A stretch of DNA of 61,442 nucleotides, the filler included. It is 11 parts of 11 records of this genome, joined end to end, with 100 filler letters (N's around TTAATTAATTAA, not from the genome) between each part and the next. Parts side by side here need not be neighbours in the genome. Positions count along the whole stretch, not along the records: positions 44,806 to 53,294 come from SRR7504441_16152; 10 more parts are not named here. The stretch is one strand, 5' to 3'. The notes under the pieces were generated by a model. It made no database searches. It worked only from the letters and a program-made list of their open reading frames with translations, and was not told the DNA's origin. Below, one piece after another: positions 4,250-53,394 of the stretch. Position numbers and translations under genes: made by a program. Numbering within the stretch: position 1 is the stretch's first letter; every line of letters begins with the position of its first letter.

Positions 4250-4349
4250 NNNNNNNNNNNNNNNNNNNNNNNNNNNNNNNNNNNNNNNNNNNNTTAATTA
4301 ATTAANNNNNNNNNNNNNNNNNNNNNNNNNNNNNNNNNNNNNNNNNNNN
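4250..4349. other. Artificial contig spacer
   Basis: 44 N + TTAATTAATTAA + 44 N. Confidence 0.97.
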
Positions 4350-4811: not shown

Positions 4812-7800
4812 ATGGGGGCTGGGGCGGCGGTGCCGGCGATACCGCTGCCCTCGGAGATCGGGTGCGACGTGTGCGACGCCTGGCTCCCGGTCGGCCTCGC
4901 GGGGCTCTCCCCGATCGAGGCACTGCGCGCGCCGTGGTTCGAGTGCGCCGACTGCAAGGCCGAGCCGCCAGTGCAGCTGCACAAGCCGCTGGCCATCCCG
5001 TACGCCGTGCGGCGGTCGCTCGGGCCGGGTGGGCTGCCGGTTTGCTTGCTGCACGTGCCGGCCGAGCGGCGGCCGTATGGGCTGGATCCGCAGGGGGAAC
5101 TCCTGCTGGTGGAGACCCGGCCAGTGAACCACAAGCACGTCCGGCCCGGCCAGCGGCTGCTGTGGCTGGACCAGCCGCCCAGTGGTCTGCTGACACTCGA
5201 GCAGGCCGAGCGGTCCAGCACCAACGAGCTCTTCTGGACTGCGAGAGAAAAGCCGGCTAAGGCGGAAGCCGCGCCCGACCCGGACGGCAAGGCTGGCAAG
5301 CGCTGCTGGAGCGTCTGGCTGAACAGTGGGCACAGCGTGACCGTGGACGACTGGCCGGGCCTCGCTTTCTGGCTGGGCCGGCCTGGTCAGTCGCTCACTG
5401 TGCTGTCAGACTCGGGCGCCTTCCCTTGTCTCTACCCGGTGCTCTCCCGTCTCCTCCAGCTTAACCCGAGCGCCAGTGAGCTGTTCGACCGGCTGAGACC
5501 CGGCCGGGCGCTCAAGCTGTGCGGGGCCCGGCTGCGCGAGTCGGCTCCGGCGGGTTGGAGTCCGCCGCAGCACCTTAAGTTCCCAGCTGGGTTCCGACGA
5601 CTGGTTAAGCAACTGCTGCTCTGCCGGGCCAGACTCCAGAGGCAGCCGACCGAACAGGCCGGGCTGGGCGCGCTCCCGATCAACGTGCTCTTCTTGATCG
5701 TGCAGGCGGCGGCGGTTGATCTGGAGCGCTGTCTGCTCCCTGCAGTGAGCATACCTAAGCGCTCGACCATCCAACGGCTAGAGCTTAGCATACAGCTCAA
5801 CCCACGGTCAGCCCGGCCGCGTTAGTGCCGTCTGAGTCGCTGGTAGGGGCACGCGCGCACAGGCCACGGGGCTGCGGCAGCTGATAGACACTGAAACGGG
5901 GCTGGATGGCGATGCTGTGGCGGTGGAGCTAGCTGACCCAGGCTGGGCTGTGAGGGCTGGCCCTGCTGGCTGGCTGATGGCCCGGGCAGGGGCTCGTGGA
6001 CGCTCTGGCCTCCGGCCGGCTGCCTGTGACCGCGGCGCTGCGGGCTGCTAACCGTGGCAGCAGCGGCGCGGTGCTTAATGTGCCTGGGCTGGCCACACGA
6101 CTATTTAGCTACCAGGTGTGTATGACCCCATCTAGTAATGCCGACGAGACGCAGGTTGGGGCACTCGACTGGTGCCGCGAGGTCGAGGATCGGGCCCAGC
6201 GACCGGACCACCGTCCCCCGGCTATTCGATACCTCTCAGCCGATGGCCGAACGCTGGGCGAAGAAGCTCTGCACGCCGCTCTCTCTACCAGTGGCCAGCA
6301 GCTGCGGCCATCCGGTGGGCTCATGTGCGACCAGATGGGCCTGGGCAAGACCGTCCAACTGTTGGCACTGGTGCCGACCGGCTCGACCTCCCGCTCAGCC
6401 GGCTAACAGGTGATGAGCAGGGCTTCACCAGCAGGACGGTGCGAGCGCGACAATGCGGATAAATTCGAAGCCGTCCCGTTCATCTCACCTGTGGCCGCTG
6501 AGCAAAGCCAGCCCGAGTCTATCGGTGGCCAACCGCACGCCTGGGCCATAAGTTGGGCGCAGGGCTTGGACCGCGACGGCTGCGGAGTAAGACTGACGAG
6601 CCAGAGCCTTCGCTGGAGCAGGCAGTGCCGTCATCGACTGAGCTGACTGTAATCAAAGCCACGCTGGTGGTGGTACCTGCCACCCTACTGTCGCAGTGGC
6701 AAGCGGAGGCGGCAAAGCATGCACCTGGGCTCAGCGTGCTGGTGTACGGAAAAGCTGCCAGTGTAACGCCAAGGCAGCTGTGCGAGGCTGACCTTGTGCT
6801 CACTACCTACGAGCAATGCCGCTTCGACTTGGCTCAACACGGCGCATTGGGCGGCAAGGCAACGCTGCACGTATGGCCTGCGAGGCTCACCCCCTGGCTA
6901 ATCGCAGGTGCTATCGCCTCTGTTGATGGTTGAATGGTGGCGGATTGCACTGGACGAAGCTCAGCTAGTCAAATCTGGCGCTTCAAAGGCCGCTCGGATG
7001 TGTTCGAGCCTAGCTCGGGTGCACTCGTGGTGTCTCACAGGTCGGATATCCGCCGTAAAGGCATCATCAAGTTGGCAGGCACTCCGATGAGTCAGCATGT
7101 AGTTGAACTTGCCGGGCTGCTCCACTTCATCCACGCTCCTGTCTCTATCCCCAAGCTTCGCCATCTCAAATCGCTGTGCGAATCGAGCCACAAGGCGCGC
7201 AGCCCGAGGATAAATTCTTTGATTGGGTGGCAGGCCGACCGAGTAGCTGGCTTCTCGGCCACCTTGGGTCTTCTGAGATACACGATGTGGCGCCACGAAG
7301 TGGCCGATGTACAGCAGGAGATAGTGCTATCAGCCTGCTGCCTGGAGCACGTTTGGCTGCGTTTACCACCCAAGGCGCCTTGACGACCCCCTAAACTCTC
7401 ACACTGCCATGTACTTGCAGGAGGCGTCGCTTTATGCCGTACGCCGTTCCGCCGCCTGCCGCCAAGTGCGCCACGCTGCCCGCAAGGGTCAGCGGCTGTG
7501 TGCCTCTGCACTCCACAACCACGTTCTTGCTCTGCGGCAGGCCTGCTGCCACCCACAGGTCCCCGTGTCAGCGCAGCTGCCATCTCATTCGATTACAGGT
7601 GGTCCATGGTGCAGGACTGCGAGGTCCGCCTATCTGCATGCAAGAAGCATGGGCAAAGGCGGTGTCCGCTGCGACAAGCGCGATGATGTCGGCAGCAGGT
7701 TCACCTCGCTTTTGCGGCTTGATGCCGTGTCAGGAGCGCTTTGCCGGTTGCAGCTTCGAGTGGGGATGGCCCAACTTGCGTCAGGAGAAGCATTGATTGG

Positions 7801-8977
7801 CAGCGGGCTGTGGGGCTCAGCGATTGAGTTGGCACATCGCTTGGTTGCGCAGTACGGCGATCAACTGGTGGCTGGCGCAGTCAATCGCCGGGCAATCGAA
7901 CAGCTTGAGGCGGCTGAGCTGTGTGGCCTGCTGTTATACGGTGGGGCCTGGCCAGGGGAAACAGTGACAGCAGGTTCCAGCAAAACACAGCAAACCCCGG
8001 GCGTCGGACAGAGGCTGGTGGACTGTGTTACAGGCGAGAGAGGCACGGCTGGCTGAGCTCCAGTCTAAAGACGATGGGCTAGCGGGTGGACACGCCTGTG
8101 TCCGGTGACTCATTAGTGGCGGCAGGCGAGCTTATGGACAAGTGTGAAGTTGCGCCACATCCATCGAACAATCTCACCGCCGCAATGGACCGCGCAGCCT
8201 CGCAGTTCGAGCACAGCGAGGTCGATCTGCGAACTTTGCAGCAGGGCGTCTCAGACGGCGGTGCGTGCCGAGACGAGGCTGTGTCACAGGGTGGGTAGGA
8301 TCTCATCAGTCCTGGGGCATCAAAATCGACACTCTGATTGCCAGGCTCAAAGCATCTGACGCTGAGGTTAAGAGTGTGGTAGCTTGCTGCTGATACAAAG
8401 CAGCCGACCGCAGTGGTTCAGGTGTTCTCGGGCTGGAACAGCATGCTGGACGTCACATCGAAAGCGTTGGATTTGGCTGGCATTGCGCACGCTGTGCTGC
8501 AGGGGTGAGCTGCGAAGCACCGTTACTGCATACTAATCCTTGGATTCAGCCGAGGCTGCGACACTGCAGTAGGTCGTTTTGCTTCTGACCCTGAGTGCAA
8601 GGTAGCTCTTCTTTTCCTTGAGCGGTGTTCATGTGCCAACCAGGTGTTGCTGGTGCCGCTGCGGACAGCACACGGCGCAGCTGGCCTGACACTTACCATG
8701 GCCCGCGTGGCCTACATAATGGAGCCATCGTTGGACCCCGCGATAGAACAGCAAGCGATGGCGCGCTTGCATCGATTAGGCCAGCTTCATCAGGTCTGAA
8801 CCCATTGGATATTCGTGGCATTCATTGCATTTGCTACAGGTCGATGTAGTAAAGCTACTTTGTTCCGACACCATCGAAGGTCCGATCCATACCCAAGCGG
8901 CCCCAGGCAGCGAAGCCACTGGTATGGACCCATTGAGGTTGCTCGATGTGGACACGTCCGGCATTGATCTAGTTTGA
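4812..8977 (+). CDS. SHPRH/Rad5-like SNF2 helicase with N-terminal Cys-rich extension; many short introns
   Basis: Motifs GGLMCDQMGLGKT, TLVVVPATLLSQW, WWRIALDEAQ, WCLTGTP, LRQACCHPQV, VFSGW, GAAGLTL, EQQAMARLHRLGQ. Two 40-nt introns (5807-5846, 5950-5989) join ORF 4407..5825 in frame to the helicase; stop TGA 8975-8977. Confidence 0.8.
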
Positions 8978-8992
8978 TTCATCGAAATAAAT

Positions 8993-9092
8993 NNNNNNNN
9001 NNNNNNNNNNNNNNNNNNNNNNNNNNNNNNNNNNNNTTAATTAATTAANNNNNNNNNNNNNNNNNNNNNNNNNNNNNNNNNNNNNNNNNNNN
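8993..9092. other. Artificial contig spacer
   Basis: 44 N + TTAATTAATTAA + 44 N. Confidence 0.97.
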
Positions 9093-9416: not shown

Positions 9417-12133
9417 ATGTCTAGCGAGACTGTGGGCGCGGGCTGGCTGATTGCTCGGCGCACGCTGGCCCACTGGACCCGAGCCAAGCTGGCGAAGTTC
9501 AACGACGAGCATCTTGGAGACGGCGGCTGGGACCAGGCTTCCGACGACGCGCTCCGATTGGTGCGCCCCGCCGGATCCGATGGGTTCGGAGGCGAGCGCG
9601 GCGGGCAGGCGGCGTCGTCGGTGATCGAGGCGCACATAGAGCTGAGTTCCAAGGCGGAGGCGGACAAGAAGCACAAAGAGCTTGTGGACAAGCTGGTTAG
9701 TATGAACGCCACCCTCATCGAGGTGATCCTGTGTATTATAATCGAGCTGATCCTGTGCATTAGATAATGAGCCGGCACCCGACCCACCCGCCGGCCCCTG
9801 TGGTGCCCGCGCCACTGCCCACCGTGCCGGCAGTCCTGCCGGCTGCGGGTGCACCAGCGGAGCCCTCCGGCGAGTCCCCGCCGGCGCAGCAAGCAGCTTC
9901 CACCCATTCGGCTCCCCCACCGACCACCGGGAAAAGACCCAAGGTGGTACGCGCGCCTGTCATCTTCAGCTACCAGAGCGGCCAAGTGGACTTCCTCAAG
10001 CAGCTGCGCAAGTGGCTCAACGACCACGGGATCGCCACTGTGGATGGCACTCAGGTTCCCGCCGGGATGGATTGGAGGATATTCTACTTTTCAGCGCTCA
10101 AAAAGGCGCACATCCTGCTCCCGGTGCTCTCGGAGTCGTTTATGTTTTCGCGAGCGTGCGAGTCGGAGCTGACTTACGGGATTGATAAGGGCAAGTCAGT
10201 AATTCCCATCTTATGTGATCCAAAGTACATGGCTGTGCTCTCGGAGCCGGAAAACTATGTGCACATCGACGAGGACATTGAACTGCGCGCCCCAAAAATA
10301 GATATGTTCCTCTCCACCCGAAATCGGTACCCGGCGAATGGTAAATTTGAAGACAACTTTGAGGAGAACGCTCAGGCGCTGCTTGTTCGCATAAAACTAG
10401 AGCTGCAGAGCGCCAAGGCTGACGACTCTAGGAGCGAGGCGCACGGGGAGGGCAAGCTACCCTGGCAGCTAGCCGCTGGGGCCACCGACATTGATAAGAT
10501 GGTCGCCTGCCTCAAGTCAAACTCTGACAGCGCCACTGCGCTTGGAACTCTCAAGGCGCTGCAGCTGCGGCTGTTCGAGCTCGACAAACCGGACGAGAAA
10601 GGCTGCGAGACAGCCATTCTAGCTCAGCCGGCCGAGATCTTGTCTCAGCTGGTGGGCAGCGAGCGGGAAGAGATCCAAGTGATTGCGAGCGACTGCATTA
10701 AGACACTCGCGATGGTCGGGAGTTGGTTTGGACCGGGCTTGCACGAGTTCAGGCAGGCAGCGACAGACGCGAATGTTGTGCCGCGACTGCTAGCGATGAT
10801 GGTTCCTGAATTTTCCAAGGATGCCAAGCACGTGGCAATGATGGCACTCAATTACGTCACGCGCGTGAAGAGCGCTAAACTCTTGGTGGCAAAAAGCTCC
10901 GGGATCCAGAAGCTGATTGCCATGGTTGACGATCCTGATAATACATCGCACTGCAAGGCAGTGGCGCTGGCGATCCTGTGGAACGAGGTGTATGAGCCCG
11001 AGCACAAGGACATCATGATTGAGAGCGGCATAATTGACACTATTGTTCGATACATTCACAACCCGAAGTCAATCGAGGAGGGCCAGAAAAGCTGCTACTT
11101 CATCATGAGCCACCTATCGTACAAGTATCCAGAGCAGGTGAACGATAGCGGGATCGTCGAGTTCGCCCTCGAGGTGATTGGTCAGACGAGCTCGCCTCTA
11201 CCCACCACGTCGCTGCAGACTCTGGAAGGCGCGTGTCGACTGATGGACACGATCGCCGGTAACAGCCAGACGAGGCACACGCTCCCCGCCAAGGGTGCTA
11301 TGCCAATCCTGTTGCATGCGCTCGATCTGAGCACCAACCAATCAGGCGGCTTTAGTGGCTTTAGCAAAGCTTCCATGACGGTCGATGCTAAATCTTCCAT
11401 GACCAATCAGCCGAAAGACGCCTTCAAGATGCGGGCTGCCAATGCATTGAACCACATGGCCAAGGCGCTGCCGGAGGCCGAGCAGGCGGTGTCAGACTAC
11501 CTCGAGCGACTCATTCGCGACCACCGGATAGACGCTTCCGCGCTGGTCTGGTTGTGTGTTCAGCCGACGATTCGAGGATTGATCCTGCGGCGCAGCTCGT
11601 TGATTGAAATGTTCCGCAGTCAAGTTAAGGACAGGATCACGTACGACTTAGCTATCCTGCTGATTGCAATGACAAAATCTGCCGAGAGCTTGGACGAACT
11701 CATTTACACTCAGATAAATGTTCCAGCCGATAGATTACACCCAGCAGGCCCAGCGACGATAGGGGACTTTGTTCTCTCGGTGTTCAGCTGTTCAGGCCAG
11801 GTGCTCTGTGTGAGGTGGGCAATTCTGTGCCAGAGCGTGCGTATAGTCCAGGAGGCCTTGCTCAGTACAACCGGCCAGAGTCGTATTGAGACCAAATTTT
11901 GCCGGAAGTTTGTGACGTGTCTGATAGAGTGGCTGCAAGGCGGGCATCCGTACAAGTTCGACGGGTTAAACACAATCAAAGTGTTGATCAGGAACCGGCA
12001 GCTGCTGGCCCTAGCAGCCGAACTTTTGCAAAGGCAGCCACATAAGCTGTCTGCAGCCACGCAAGAAGCGTTGAAGAGTGGTGCGACAGCAGAGATTGTG
12101 GCTACAGCATGCGAGGAGCTAAGTAGACAATAA
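9417..12133 (+). CDS. TIR_2-domain + armadillo-repeat protein
   Basis: TIR motifs VIFSY..., LLPVLSESFMFSRACESEL, VIPI; ARM-like helices downstream (VVPRLLAMM, GIQKLIAMV, GAMPILLHAL). Intron 9723-9763 joins ORFs 9417..9767 and 9767..12133 in frame. Confidence 0.8.
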
Positions 12134-13765: not shown

Positions 13766-13865
13766 NNNNNNNNNNNNNNNNNNNNNNNNNNNNNNNNNNN
13801 NNNNNNNNNTTAATTAATTAANNNNNNNNNNNNNNNNNNNNNNNNNNNNNNNNNNNNNNNNNNNN
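13766..13865. other. Artificial contig spacer
   Basis: 44 N + TTAATTAATTAA + 44 N. Confidence 0.97.
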
Positions 13866-20205: not shown

Positions 20206-20305
20206 NNNNNNNNNNNNNNNNNNNNNNNNNNNNNNNNNNNNNNNNNNNNTTAATTAATTAANNNNNNNNNNNNNNNNNNNNNNNNNNNNNNNNNNNNNNN
20301 NNNNN
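20206..20305. other. Artificial contig spacer
   Basis: 44 N + TTAATTAATTAA + 44 N. Confidence 0.97.
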
Positions 20306-24118: not shown

Positions 24119-24218
24119 NNNNNNNNNNNNNNNNNNNNNNNNNNNNNNNNNNNNNNNNNNNNTTAATTAATTAANNNNNNNNNNNNNNNNNNNNNNNNNN
24201 NNNNNNNNNNNNNNNNNN
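24119..24218. other. Artificial contig spacer
   Basis: 44 N + TTAATTAATTAA + 44 N. Confidence 0.97.
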
Positions 24219-27604: not shown

Positions 27605-27704
27605 NNNNNNNNNNNNNNNNNNNNNNNNNNNNNNNNNNNNNNNNNNNNTTAATTAATTAANNNNNNNNNNNNNNNNNNNNNNNNNNNNNNNNNNNNNNNN
27701 NNNN
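27605..27704. other. Artificial contig spacer
   Basis: 44 N + TTAATTAATTAA + 44 N. Confidence 0.97.
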
Positions 27705-36416: not shown

Positions 36417-36516
36417 NNNNNNNNNNNNNNNNNNNNNNNNNNNNNNNNNNNNNNNNNNNNTTAATTAATTAANNNNNNNNNNNNNNNNNNNNNNNNNNNN
36501 NNNNNNNNNNNNNNNN
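36417..36516. other. Artificial contig spacer
   Basis: 44 N + TTAATTAATTAA + 44 N. Confidence 0.97.
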
Positions 36517-39994: not shown

Positions 39995-40094
39995 NNNNNN
40001 NNNNNNNNNNNNNNNNNNNNNNNNNNNNNNNNNNNNNNTTAATTAATTAANNNNNNNNNNNNNNNNNNNNNNNNNNNNNNNNNNNNNNNNNNNN
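39995..40094. other. Artificial contig spacer
   Basis: 44 N + TTAATTAATTAA + 44 N. Confidence 0.97.
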
Positions 40095-44705: not shown

Positions 44706-44805
44706 NNNNNNNNNNNNNNNNNNNNNNNNNNNNNNNNNNNNNNNNNNNNTTAATTAATTAANNNNNNNNNNNNNNNNNNNNNNNNNNNNNNNNNNNNNNN
44801 NNNNN
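44706..44805. other. Artificial contig spacer
   Basis: 44 N + TTAATTAATTAA + 44 N. Confidence 0.97.
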
Positions 44806-45719
44806 CGCAATGTCGCAGTGGCTACCAATAGACACAGTGTGGAAGCGCAGTGTGTCAGTACCGCCACTGGAAGTAATGCAGAAGTCTGCTCCGCTTCATA
44901 GCGCACGAGCGGCTCCCAGTACGTTGGCAGCTTCCAGTAGTCCTGAACATCAGGCTCGACGAATAGCACCCCGTAACCGAGCTTTGCCATGCGCTGCACC
45001 GCCTCCCGCATCTCGGCCGCCTGCGGGGCGCCCTCCACTACGCCTGCGAATGCGCCTCTGTCGTGCTGCGACCAATTGAACAAATGCGCCGCTGCCGTCT
45101 GCCTACGAAGCTCGGCAAGCGTGCTCTCGAAAGCGTTCACCCGGAGCAGGCCGCCCTGCAGGTGCGCTTCCAGGAACTGCGGGACTGATGGGTTAATCAT
45201 CAGCTTCCGATCGGCGTCGCCTTGCCTTGCTGTCGCGTACAGCTCCCTAAAGAACGGCAGCCGGTCGGGGTCGCTCATGTCGTTAGTTGCCAGGTCCATG
45301 TAGATGCCGTCTCCAGAGGCGTTCGGCGAGGATGCGAGCGCAGTGTGCACGAATCGTGAAATGTTAGCCAGGCTGTTGCAGCAAACCGGCGGACCGGTGG
45401 CGGGAACCGGCACCTGCTGCGCCGGGATGTAGTGATAGACGGCCACCCCCGCCTGTCGCAGCAGATCGGGCGCTGCGGCGTTGGCAGACGCGTTGCACAC
45501 GTCGGACGCGGCCTGGAAGTCCCACTGGGAGCATATGGCCACCGATAGGCGCGGCGCTCCCGGTAGTCTGGCCGCCCAGAGCACGCGCTGGGTGTCGGCC
45601 GAGCAGGCCGAGAGCTGTGGGTTATACAGCGGCACGTGGATGGACAATGCGGACTGGGCTGATGCCGTGGCCCAAAGCCCGACGATGGTGGCGGCGATGC
45701 TGCTGAGCGACGCAGGCAT
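44806..45719 (-). CDS. Secreted spherulin-4 (GH135)-like glycoside hydrolase (3' truncated)
   Basis: Signal peptide; VPLYNP, LRQAGVAVYHYI, DGIYMD, MINP, AFE, GYGVLFV, YWKLPTYW. Alternative ATG at 45800. Confidence 0.65.
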
Positions 45720-45971
45720 CAAGATAGTGAGGTCTCTGCGCCTCGGCGAAGTCTCGCAGGTGTCCGTTATCGCTTTCCACTCAGACCACTCGTGATGCAT
45801 GAACCGGACGTCGTATTTTATTTATGTGTTATATTCCGATGTAATTCTAAGTTTGACGGCTCGTGAACTATATGATTGTATCACTCGCTATAGCACTCGC
45901 AACAGCATGATCACCATTCATAATCATCAATAGATCATTGATTAGTGCTCTTGAGCGAAAACAGGCTGCAG

Positions 45972-46465
45972 GTGAGTGGTTCAGCCGACGGCACAGTCCG
46001 GCGGTGGGACATGAGAATGCCGGGCTCCCAGGCGGCCTCAACTATAGAATGCGGGGCCCCGGTGCGCTCTCTCAGCAGGCCGGCGGGCTCAGCGCCTACA
46101 CACAGGTGTCTTCGCTAGCCCAAACTGCAGATGGCCGCACGCTGGTGGTCGGCCTAGCCAGCCCTCGACCTGATGGGGGTGGTTTCTGCGTCGAGCTCGA
46201 CAGCTCGACAGGGCAAGTAGTGAGACACTTCGAGCATCACACTAGCGACTGCCGCTCTGTTGACCTAGCGCCCGGGGACAAGTGGCTGCTGACCGCTTCG
46301 TTTGATGCAACCGTGGGGCTTGTGGACATGCAGCAAGGGGCCCTAGCAGCCCAATGGTTAGAGCATCAAGACCGAGTGGTGCAAGCTTGCTGGAACCCGA
46401 ACGCCCCAGGCTTTCTCACCAGCAGCGCCGACTGCACAGCACGGCTGTGGCAGTCCGAGTCTTAG
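45972..46465 (+). CDS. WDR47: WDR47 homologue, coding block 3 (C-terminal WD40 repeats, stop codon)
   Basis: VSGSADGTVRRWDMR...HHTSDCRSVDLAPGDKWLLTASFD...EHQDRVVQACW...FLTSSADCTARLW*; preceded by an acceptor AG at 45970-45971. Confidence 0.8.
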
Positions 46466-46466
46466 A

Positions 46467-46963
46467 ACGGGAGACCAATTTGTGCTGGGGACCAACTCTA
46501 AGAGCCTACTGGTGTGCGGCGCCACTGGCCAGCCGGAGCTGCCGGTTCACGTGATGCGGTCCGAGCACCACTTTGGGTCGATCTACTGTGTAGCTTGGCA
46601 AGGCAACGTGATCGCGAGTGGTTCCAACGACAAGCTGGTCATTTGCTCAAACGCCCGAGGCTGAGCCGTGGCTAGGTGCGAGTGCTCACGGCCGACCCGA
46701 ATGACATTGACTCGGTCGCCACGGCGGAGTCGAGCGCGCTTGTGGGGCACACCGGCACGGTCGCTGGCGGTGCTGCTGGGCGGCTGAGTGGATGGGTCTA
46801 GGTGCGGTGCGTCAGGTTTGTGCCCGGCTCCGGCTTGCTTGCATCCGGTGGCGCGGGCGATTGCAGAGTGCGTCTTTGGGATGTGGGTCAGGCCTGTGAG
46901 CTCGCCAGCTTCAGAGGACACTCAGACAATGTGCACACGGTCCGGTGCACGCAGCAGGGTTTG
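46467..46963 (+). CDS. WDR47: WDR47 homologue, coding block 2 (first WD40 repeats)
   Basis: TGDQFVLGTNSKSL...HHFGSIYCVAW...ASGSNDK...SGGAGDC...GHSDNV; two internal introns; ends at donor GT 46964; no start codon of its own. Confidence 0.8.
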
Positions 46964-47008
46964 GTGTGTGCCAGGCTCTCCCCCTAGCTCCTCAAAGAAG
47001 TTTGAATG

Positions 47009-48310
47009 CGTGTCGTTGAAAGCCAGCGCGCGCACGGGGTGCGAGTCTGTGTAGCACCCGGCCGGCACCAGGTCGCTCGGGACCATGATGCTGTAGTCAA
47101 ACTCCGGGTCACTCGCGGCCCAGCCGGTCGGCCGCATCTGCGCGAACTCCTCTCGGTCTATCACCCCGTCGTTGTTCCGATCCCACTGCCCAAACTCGTC
47201 CTCCGCTTCTCGCGTAGGCTGCTCGGATAACATAGCGTCCGGCTCAAGCTGCGCGGAGAGCGGCTCGGTCCACTGCCGATCTCCCAATCCGGTCGGCTCG
47301 CCACATTCTAGCGGCTGCTCCGGCTCGACACTGGTTGCCCGCTGCTGACAGGCTGAGCGCGAGACTTTGCTGTCGCTCGGGATCACCCAGCTGACTGCCT
47401 GCTTCCTGATCAACTCCGCCGCCTCCTCACACACCGACTGGCGCACTGGGTCGGCCCGGCCCCCAGCATCGGCAAGCTCGACCGGCGGCGGGTGTTGCTC
47501 CGCTGGAGAGAGCTGCACCGGGCTCGGGATCGGGTCGGCGCGGCCGGTCTGGACTGTGAGGCCCTGCTCGGGGGTGTGCGAGTCCATGTCGGCCAGGAGC
47601 GAGATCGACATCGAGTCGGCGGGCACCTGCCATTCGGGGTGTGCCTCGGCGTGTCGGTTGAGCTGGTGGAGCAGAGCCTGCCGGAGCAAAGCGAGCAGCC
47701 GCCCGCCCGGCACGGGGCTGCGCTTGCGGCTGCCCGAGCCGTAGATGGTCTCAAAATGCGGGGCACACGCCTCGAAGCACTCCAGCCGGCCCTTCTCGGC
47801 GGTCCAGTGCGCAAAGTCCTGGTGCTCCCGCAGCGAGCCGAGCGTGAGGCAGTAGCACAGCGTGCTGAACTCCTCCTTGGAGCACTGGCTCTCCAGCGCC
47901 TTGAGTCCGTCCACCAGCTCCATCACCGCCGGAGTGAGCGCCTGGTTGTCTAGCAGTTCCAGGAACTTCTGCCGCCGCAGCTCGAACAGCACCTGCTCGT
48001 AGTTGAACTTTGGACTCCGCTGCCGCACCGTCTCAGCCCGAGCGCCCCCCGGGGGGCAGCGCCTTGAGCGGCTGAATGAAGCGCTCGGCGTCGGCCCAGC
48101 GGCCGTCCAGGATCAGGCTGCGGATGAACGAGAGCTCCTTGCCGTGGGTTTCGAGGCTCACGCCGCTCTCGCGCTCCAGGGCGCGCATCGCGGCGCAGTA
48201 GCCCTGGCTGTGGGTCCATTCCTGCCCAGCACCCCAGCTCTGCCCGGCTGGGCCGGCCGGCACACCAACAGTAGCAGCACCACCTCGTCCCGGGTGATCT
48301 TGAGTTGCAT
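47009..48310 (-). CDS. WDR47: WDR47 homologue, coding block 1 (LisH-CTLH, EF-hand, start of first WD40)
   Basis: MQLKITRDEVVLLLL|EW...ALERESGV...FIRSLILDGRWADAERFIQPL...RRQKFLELL...LCYCLTL; EF loop DRNNDGVIDREEF; ends DSHPVRALAFNDT. Confidence 0.8.
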
Positions 48311-48397
48311 CCTACCGCTGCTGCCGGGGTGCAGTCCGCGAAAAATTGATCAAGCAGTCAAAGCACTGTGCGCAGGCATCATCAGCAGACGCGAGCG

Positions 48398-49228
48398 ATG
48401 GTCTCGGTGATGACGAATGTAGCAGACGCGACCGATAAGTCGCCCCGGAAGGCCGGGCGGGACGGAGCGCTGGTGCAGCTGTACGGCAGGCTGCGGCAGC
48501 ACTGGGCGCTGCTGGTGCCGCTGGTGTTCGTCGGGCTGCCGGTGCTAGTCCTATCTACGTCCTATATTACCCAGCCGTCCCGCGCCCCGCGGCTGCAGCG
48601 GCAGCTGCTCCAGCCGGGCGAGCAGTTCACGGAGCTCTCGGAGGAGCGCATGCCGCTCCTATCAACGGACTGTCCGGCGGAGGCCGCGGTGCGGAGCAGT
48701 AGAGGCGGCACTGCGGTGATCGAGGCCCCAACGCTCACCCGAAGAACGAACAACGCTGTGGCGGCCCCGCGGAAGGTGTTTATGCCGGTTCTGATCCCCG
48801 GAGCGCTCTGGTACGAGGTGGATCTTGGCAAGCCGCAGCCGGTGGGCTACGTGTCGGTCAGCTTCAGAGTGCCGCCTCACAAGCCGTCCCAAGTGCTCTG
48901 CATGGCGGACGAGACGAGCCTGGACGGTCCTCCGCCGGTCGACCTGGCTACGCCGAAGCAGTCGGGCCCTGGGCCCATAACGGGCAAGGTTGATTTAGCG
49001 CCCGGCAGCCAGTGCCGCAAGGTGAGACTGACACTCCCGGAGCCCCCGAAACGAAAGGTTCCGCCAAAGCGGCAGAAAGTCCGGGTCAAGCCGGGCAAGA
49101 AGCGCATTCGCGAGGAGATACCAGGCCCAGAGCCGGCAGCTGAGCCGGCCGAGACTCTAGTGCTGAGCATGGAGGTCTTTGGCAGCGATCCTAGCCAAAC
49201 TAATGCATGCAAAACGCGTGACGACTAA
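48398..49228 (+). CDS. Type II membrane protein with discoidin/galactose-binding-like motif
   Basis: Single N-terminal TM; WYEVDLGKPQPVGYV...CRKVRL...LSMEVFG. Confidence 0.55.
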   Translation: MVSVMTNVADATDKSPRKAGRDGALVQLYGRLRQHWALLVPLVFVGLPVLVLSTSYITQPSRAPRLQRQLLQPGEQFTELSEERMPLLSTDCPAEAAVRSSRGGTAVIEAPTLTRRTNNAVAAPRKVFMPVLIPGALWYEVDLGKPQPVGYVSVSFRVPPHKPSQVLCMADETSLDGPPPVDLATPKQSGPGPITGKVDLAPGSQCRKVRLTLPEPPKRKVPPKRQKVRVKPGKKRIREEIPGPEPAAEPAETLVLSMEVFGSDPSQTNACKTRDD

Positions 49229-53294: not shown

Positions 53295-53394
53295 NNNNNN
53301 NNNNNNNNNNNNNNNNNNNNNNNNNNNNNNNNNNNNNNTTAATTAATTAANNNNNNNNNNNNNNNNNNNNNNNNNNNNNNNNNNNNNNNNNNNN
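53295..53394. other. Artificial contig spacer
   Basis: 44 N + TTAATTAATTAA + 44 N. Confidence 0.97.

Follow-up and report, generated by a model that had tools for sequence, protein, structure and literature searches.

A shuffled WDR47-like gene on a eukaryotic contig and its colinear counterpart in marine metagenomes

Balanced complex inversions arise by end-joining of several simultaneous breaks. In the scrambled genes of ciliates, coding pieces are joined at pointers, which are as short as 2 bp, stand at every junction and are retained in one copy, while the spacers are eliminated (PMC9797194). Out-of-order molecules also arise in the tube through multiple displacement amplification (MDA): one study describes its chimeras as inverted joins with intervening deletions, 85% of the chimeras being inverted joins, which favour segments <10 kb apart and usually show 2-21 nt of complementarity, with at least 2 nt at 93.5% of the junctions between inverted segments <10 kb apart (PMC1855051), and another counts 5,124-7,604 false inversions per MDA library, averaging 1,493 bp (bioRxiv 10.64898/2026.06.11.730069). 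Here we compare with these systems a WDR47-like gene that lies in three blocks on two strands. It was found in a window of 61,442 bases, the whole stretch of DNA analysed, which is not one molecule: 11 contigs of 3.4-8.7 kb are joined in it by 10 spacers, and only the contig at 44806-53294 is contiguous with the gene.

Gene layout and protein family

The DNA of the window is eukaryotic, with very short introns, and GC-rich (0.51-0.67 across the window in 2-kb steps). A long minus-strand open reading frame (ORF) led to three colinear homologues, P0001 (853 aa), P0002 (865 aa) and P0003 (1203 aa), whose parts tblastn places out of order. The N-terminal LisH/CTLH part of all three falls on the minus strand at 48221->47429 and 47083->47015, ending in ...VRALAFN; the plus strand carries their middle WD40 part at 46446-46960 and, upstream of it, their C-terminal part at 45960-46462. 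The layout claimed by a sequence-only reading of this DNA is thus borne out, with block 1 on the minus strand at 48310->47012, block 2 on the plus strand at 46467-46963 and block 3 on the plus strand at 45972-46465.

When the exons were joined in silico in homologue order, with six GT/GC..AG introns of 38-44 nt taken out, they gave 693 codons with a lone stop at the end. The product aligns with P0004, a closer relative (614 aa, transcript-derived by its source name), in a single high-scoring segment pair (HSP; residues 1-544, 52.5% identity), and its residues 376-688 align with P0001 505-851 in a single HSP that spans both block junctions. P0004 is itself colinear, and gapless across the junction of blocks 1 and 2. 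Judged by these alignments, the agreement with homologues is far beyond chance, and the expectation that the joined blocks would read as one gapless gene held. At ~600-614, within the propeller, P0004 breaks off abruptly in unrelated residues, which probably reflect either a partial transcript isoform or an intron that was retained.

As reconstructed, the colinear gene would encode a WDR47-like protein of ~692 codons with a LisH/CTLH N-terminus, an EF-hand linker and a C-terminal WD40 propeller, interrupted by six introns. The LisH match is weak (Pfam LisH_WDR26 at E 0.0052; 16.6 bits, cut-off 27), and the N-terminus aligns to P0001, P0002 and P0004. A CTLH-type domain in block 1 scores 27.8 bits for Pfam TPR1-like_2nd (cut-off 27). 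Among PDB structures the WDR47 N-terminal domain (7wek/7wej) is the best match at E 1.4e-7, with TOPLESS/TPR1 behind at ~5e-4, and Pfam WD40 matches block 3 at E 9e-14 and block 2 at E 3e-7. The name WDR47, given at first sight of the sequence, therefore stands, on the nearest N-terminal structure, the C-terminal WD40 repeats and the shared order of the homologues. Between the linker and the first WD40 blade (47040-47200, minus) there is an EF-hand-like calcium-binding loop, below Pfam cut-offs and present in P0004 also; we know of no such loop in animal WDR47.

On the minus strand, exon 1 (48266..48310) begins with the ATG at 48310-48308 and matches the first residues of P0004; removal of intron 1 (48222..48265, 44 nt, GT..AG) restores the frame and the alignment to P0004. 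Exon 2 (48063..48221) holds the LisH-like part and the start of the CTLH, supported by tblastn as well as by the weak Pfam match. Intron 2 (48020..48062, 43 nt) is GC..AG under the splice model, apparently the one intron with a GC donor. The part of exon 3 that precedes the breakpoint (47012..48019, minus), identified by Pfam, PDB 7wek and tblastn, contains in order the CTLH/WDR47-NTD-like region, the low-complexity linker, one EF-hand and the start of the first WD40 blade, and ends in ...AFND. Block 2 is made up of exon parts 46467-46637, 46676-46759 and 46802-46963, separated by introns at 46638-46675 and 46760-46801. Intron 5 is split by the shuffle, its 5' half being at 46964-46982 beyond block 2 and its 3' half at 45953-45971 ahead of block 3. 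Block 3 then has an exon at 45972-46061, intron 6 at 46062-46105 and the last exon at 46106-46465, with TAG at 46463-46465. In four of the six introns (38-44 nt) the motif GGCTGAG or GGCTCAG stands 10-14 nt ahead of the AG and may be a branch-point signal.

The colinear form and its breakpoints

A lookup of the stretch against public sequencing runs found none that shares half its words. The best was X1, a small marine run, at 0.37; six marine or aquatic metagenomes share 0.05-0.07 of the words, and no sharing run is on record as RNA. Logan contigs of four runs from four studies (X1-X4) were aligned to 45300-48900 at 90% likeness. Contigs that carry a colinear form, 95-99+% identical to the window, came from three marine metagenome runs in three studies. 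All three records that reach a breakpoint follow the colinear path, and none (0/3) the path of the window. X3 record 7 (338 nt, one other letter) runs through 46867-46982 and then 45953-46176, with 116 and 222 letters on its two sides; X4 record 8 runs through 46799-46982 and then 45953-45977 (184 and 25 letters); and X1 record 1 (549 nt) runs through 45993-46466, then 47010..46983 on the minus strand, then 45952..45905 on the minus strand. Five further records lie within segments, the X2 pieces inside block 1 only. X2 record 6 and X4 record 10, which are 21-33-letter matches in long unrelated records with loose ends, were disregarded.

These contigs divide the locus into segment A, which ends at 45952, then B (45953-46466), C (46467-46982), D (46983-47010), and E, which starts at 47011. 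Segment C is block 2 with its flank (516 nt, plus strand), on the evidence of tblastn, Pfam WD40 and the splice model; segment B is block 3 with its flank (514 nt, plus strand), on that of tblastn, Pfam WD40, X3 record 7 and X4 record 8; and segment E in inverted form, E', carries block 1. Because the wild contigs show C->B and B->D'->A', and homologues argue for E'->C, the natural gene is to be read as E'-C-B-D'-A' (A-D-B'-C'-E in window orientation) where the window has A-B-C-D-E; the E'->C junction of this form is a prediction from homologues. By X1 record 1, D (28 nt, plus strand in the window) is inverted in the colinear form and follows directly upon the stop codon, as the start of the 3' untranslated region (UTR). 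Segment A is an AT-rich spacer (45822..45952, from X1 record 1 and the sequence), whose minus strand follows D in the colinear form as 3' UTR or intergenic DNA ahead of a Spherulin4-family gene (44808-45821, minus; Pfam Spherulin4).

The four breakpoints are at 45952|45953, 46466|46467, 46982|46983 and 47010|47011, all within 1.06 kb, and three of the four positions are demonstrated. The joint 46982|45953 of X3 and the joint 46983|45952 of X1 are exactly complementary, so that the exchange at that pair is reciprocal, with no base lost or gained. This pair, 46982|46983 with 45952|45953, is blunt, with 0 shared letters in X3, X4 and X1. The other pair, 46466|46467 with 47010|47011, falls within ACG at 46467-46469 and its inverted copy CGT at 47009..47011, which leaves its position ambiguous by 3 nt; a single letter of X1 record 1 is unassigned there, as this ambiguity would be expected to give. 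The search for direct or inverted repeats at the breakpoints found none beyond chance size.

The shortest route between the two orders is a pair of overlapping inversions of ~543 nt, [D B'] then [D' C'], that have the 28-nt D in common; equivalently, the 1030-nt C+B would be excised, re-opened at the C/B midpoint and re-inserted inverted 28 nt away. Two overlapping inversions that restore the colinear gene and use every base once had been proposed from the window alone, and the reciprocal breakpoints of the colinear contigs agree with them. The proposed role of microhomology fared unevenly: ACG/CGT is present and coincides with one breakpoint pair, whereas the other inversion has none. GCTC, put forward as a second pointer, does occur twice (45947-45950 and 46987-46990), but the GCTC/GAGC 4-mers lie 2-8 nt off the true crossover, where no letters are shared. 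B (514 nt) and C (516 nt) are almost equal in length, or 515/515 within the ACG ambiguity, and the middle breakpoint is thus at the midpoint of 45953-46982.

Between the window and the wild contigs we list 20 substitutions, of which 16 are exonic by the splice model and 12 synonymous. The three non-synonymous differences are all in the low-complexity linker (codons 217-233). In the WD40 blocks, eight of eight differences are at third codon positions, seven being synonymous and one a TGG>TGA at 46598 (window G, X1 A) in a conserved Trp (...CVAW...). This change is in a depth-2 X1 contig and not in the window; either an error or a nonsense variant could explain it, or it may hint at TGA being read as Trp. 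Reassignment of TGA was considered and set aside, as the stops at ORF ends (13 TAG, 11 TGA and 5 TAA) give no signal of it. Both indels fall in predicted introns: X1 and X3 have 2 bases (AC) fewer at 46098 in intron 6, and X1 and X2 an extra G at 48050 in intron 2. The blocks of the window therefore look like a gene under purifying selection, and if so the shuffle would be either very recent or not in the cell.

As it is laid out in the window, the minus-strand frame of block 1 continues past ...AFNDT into ~28 unrelated codons and a stop, with loss of the WD40 propeller, and neither block 2 nor block 3 has its own start or promoter. The shuffled copy as encoded is thus predicted to be a null allele that gives no full protein. 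Rescue by back-splicing or trans-splicing was also considered and rejected, the break between blocks 1 and 2 being inside an exon, with no splice site.

A structural allele and its rivals

We favour, at roughly even odds (about 0.5), a recent, private or strain-specific balanced double inversion of the colinear gene, which is a real null allele. Four cuts would have been made in one DNA molecule of the cell and the pieces rejoined conservatively, by breakage and end-joining, with two blunt joins and two joins inside the 3-nt ACG microhomology. We infer both the setting of the event, in the cell rather than the tube, and the mechanism of joining. Cutting and rejoining of one molecule in the cell is the most plausible course because the reciprocity is exact to the nucleotide, which independent copy-choice errors would give only by coincidence; the blunt joins, moreover, are unlike MDA junctions. 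The event is one-off: permuted or flipped exons were looked for among the other informative genes in these 61 kb of assembly, and 0 of 7 had them.

Several points weigh against this reading, and we prefer the null allele to an artefact with low conviction. The four junctions of the window are read from an assembled contig, and that assembly is in many short pieces, its contigs being 3.4-8.7 kb long. The window arrangement is in none of X1-X4, where just three records reach breakpoints. Two of the matches that define the colinear path are short, the X4 bridge having 25 letters on one side and piece D in X1 having 28, both under the 31-letter rule. The colinear E'->C junction was not found in the same species: X1-X4 contigs did not contain it, JGI metagenome contigs, scanned once from the last part of block 1 and once from the first part of block 2, gave no relative, short protein fragments that would span blocks 1 and 2 were sought without a match, and protein searches for near or longer relatives gave nothing above 66% identity. 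Four perfectly precise joins are uncommon in spontaneous break repair. If a conserved gene has a null allele that shows no other decay, that allele has to be private or very young. Finally, the near-exact symmetry of B and C may be a sign of a technical or enzymatic process that is not random.

That the rearranged molecule was made in vitro or in silico, as a whole-genome amplification chimera or by mis-assembly, mis-scaffolding or processing, the organism having the colinear gene only, is a real possibility that falls short of even odds. All three independent contigs that reach a breakpoint are colinear, as such an artefact would have it, and the coding blocks are intact, the differences in the WD40 part being confined to third positions, as if nothing had happened in vivo; the fragmentation of the assembly is of a piece with this, the ACG/CGT pair fits the preference of MDA for inverted joins, and the 515/515 symmetry may hint at a technical cause. 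Four independent template switches, however, would not be expected to be reciprocal to the nucleotide, with nothing deleted or duplicated. Complementarity of at least 2 nt is found at two of the four joins (ACG) and is lacking at the other two. Short-read graph assembly cannot create such joins without repeats, and no repeat at the breakpoints is long enough to mislead a de Bruijn assembler; nor was another chimeric gene seen among the seven other informative genes of the window. Fold-backs at contig ends are uninformative about amplification, the longest exact inverted copy being 11 nt.

Programmed unscrambling or a recombinase switch, in which the contig would be a germline-like scrambled state that is turned into the colinear expressed gene, is very improbable. 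It would accommodate the perfectly conservative rearrangement, the purifying selection on the blocks, the 3-nt ACG/CGT repeat at the junction of blocks 1 and 2, and the existence of both states in sequence data, scrambled in the window and colinear in the wild contigs. Those two states, however, are from different samples and not from one organism. The junction of blocks 2 and 3 has no pointer (0 shared letters), no DNA is eliminated, since the segments abut and the only spacer (D, 28 nt) is kept in X1 record 1, and there are no recombinase-type repeats at the breakpoints. The other informative genes are in order, the DNA is GC-rich, and the TAG stop stands where homologues end. On these grounds, and with the environmental population colinear, the earlier idea of ciliate-like pointer unscrambling is not supported. 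A variant in which a non-ciliate marine protist keeps the scrambled gene in some nuclei or cells and restores it by conservative inversion, programmed or recombinase-driven, would fit the exact reciprocity, the intact coding blocks and the 515/515 symmetry, and is likewise a long shot.

That this is not one gene, but a minus-strand LisH/CTLH gene converging on separate plus-strand WD40 fragments or on a duplicated pseudogene, is suggested by the difference in strand and by the stop of block 3 directly before block 2, and is hardly credible, as the pieces fit end to end along colinear homologues, neither overlapping nor leaving gaps, and give a single stop when reconstructed, the wild contigs join them and share spacer A, which places them at the same locus, and blocks 2 and 3 lack start codon context, block 2 beginning mid-blade.

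Neighbouring genes and comparison with known systems

The 10 spacers of the window are identical, each being 44 N, TTAATTAATTAA and 44 N, and lie at 4250-4349, 8993-9092, 13766-13865, 20206-20305, 24119-24218, 27605-27704, 36417-36516, 39995-40094, 44706-44805 and 53295-53394. The order of the contigs is unrelated, and adjacency across a spacer carries no meaning. For the survey of other genes, ORFs were ranked by a self-trained codon model, which left 49 that do not overlap; 30 were sent to Pfam and 14 had a family match. The seven informative genes, all in order, are an aldo/keto reductase (profile 4-289 of 291 in one ORF), GAF (profile 4-133 of 133), Leo1 (profile 2-165 of 165), the Spherulin4 gene (profile 59-237 of 239), TIR followed by ARM repeats in one ORF, Myb followed by Myb_Cef on one strand, and an SNF2 N-terminus followed on the same strand by what we take to be the DEAQ box of the SNF2 family. 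The combination of TIR with armadillo repeats is in a single-exon ORF of 789 aa (9764-12130, plus) of a marine protist. Within the SNF2-family gene, ~1.3 kb at 7000-8300 is lower in GC and has no good ORF, with a helicase-C-like ORF (8383-8505) on one side and the DEAQ box (~6953) on the other; a long intron, an insertion or a fault of assembly could account for it.

What looked like the first scrambled gene outside ciliates would then be a derived one-off shuffle, and a false lead is removed. The locus also provides a simple test for claims of scrambled genes: a search for the colinear junctions in independent samples. As a true allele, it would offer a natural and cleanly resolved example of a balanced micro-rearrangement with four breakpoints, by which a conserved scaffold gene associated with microtubules is knocked out. 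As an artefact, it would be of an unusual balanced kind, which current chimera models do not predict and by which gene callers would be misled. The case would be important only if the process were programmed or reversible, for which a small chance remains.

The protein resembles LisH-CTLH-WD40 proteins of the WDR47/nemitin type in its N-terminal domain (7wek), its C-terminal propeller and a domain order that is that of P0001, P0002 and P0004; it differs from animal WDR47 in its low identity and in the EF-hand-like insert before the propeller, the family placement being by sequence likeness, with no tree. With MDA inverted chimeras, as described by Lasken and Stockwell 2007 (PMC1855051), the shuffle has in common strand changes within ~1 kb and 3-nt complementarity at one pair, whereas it is balanced and reciprocal, with two blunt joins and four junctions per molecule, and theirs carry a deletion. 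With the scrambled genes of ciliates, of the Oxytricha type with macronuclear-destined segments (MDS), pointers and internal eliminated sequences (IES), it shares permuted and inverted coding segments, one short junction repeat and the use of each coding base once; here, however, the second junction is pointerless, nothing is eliminated, there is no sign of two nuclear genomes, and no other gene in 61 kb is scrambled. The likeness to balanced complex inversions made by end-joining (paired-break or small chromothripsis-like events) is in the pieces being kept, reordered and flipped, with blunt or few-nt joins, while the present case is set apart by its tiny scale (28, 514 and 516 nt), by the precision of all its joins and by the equal length of its large pieces.

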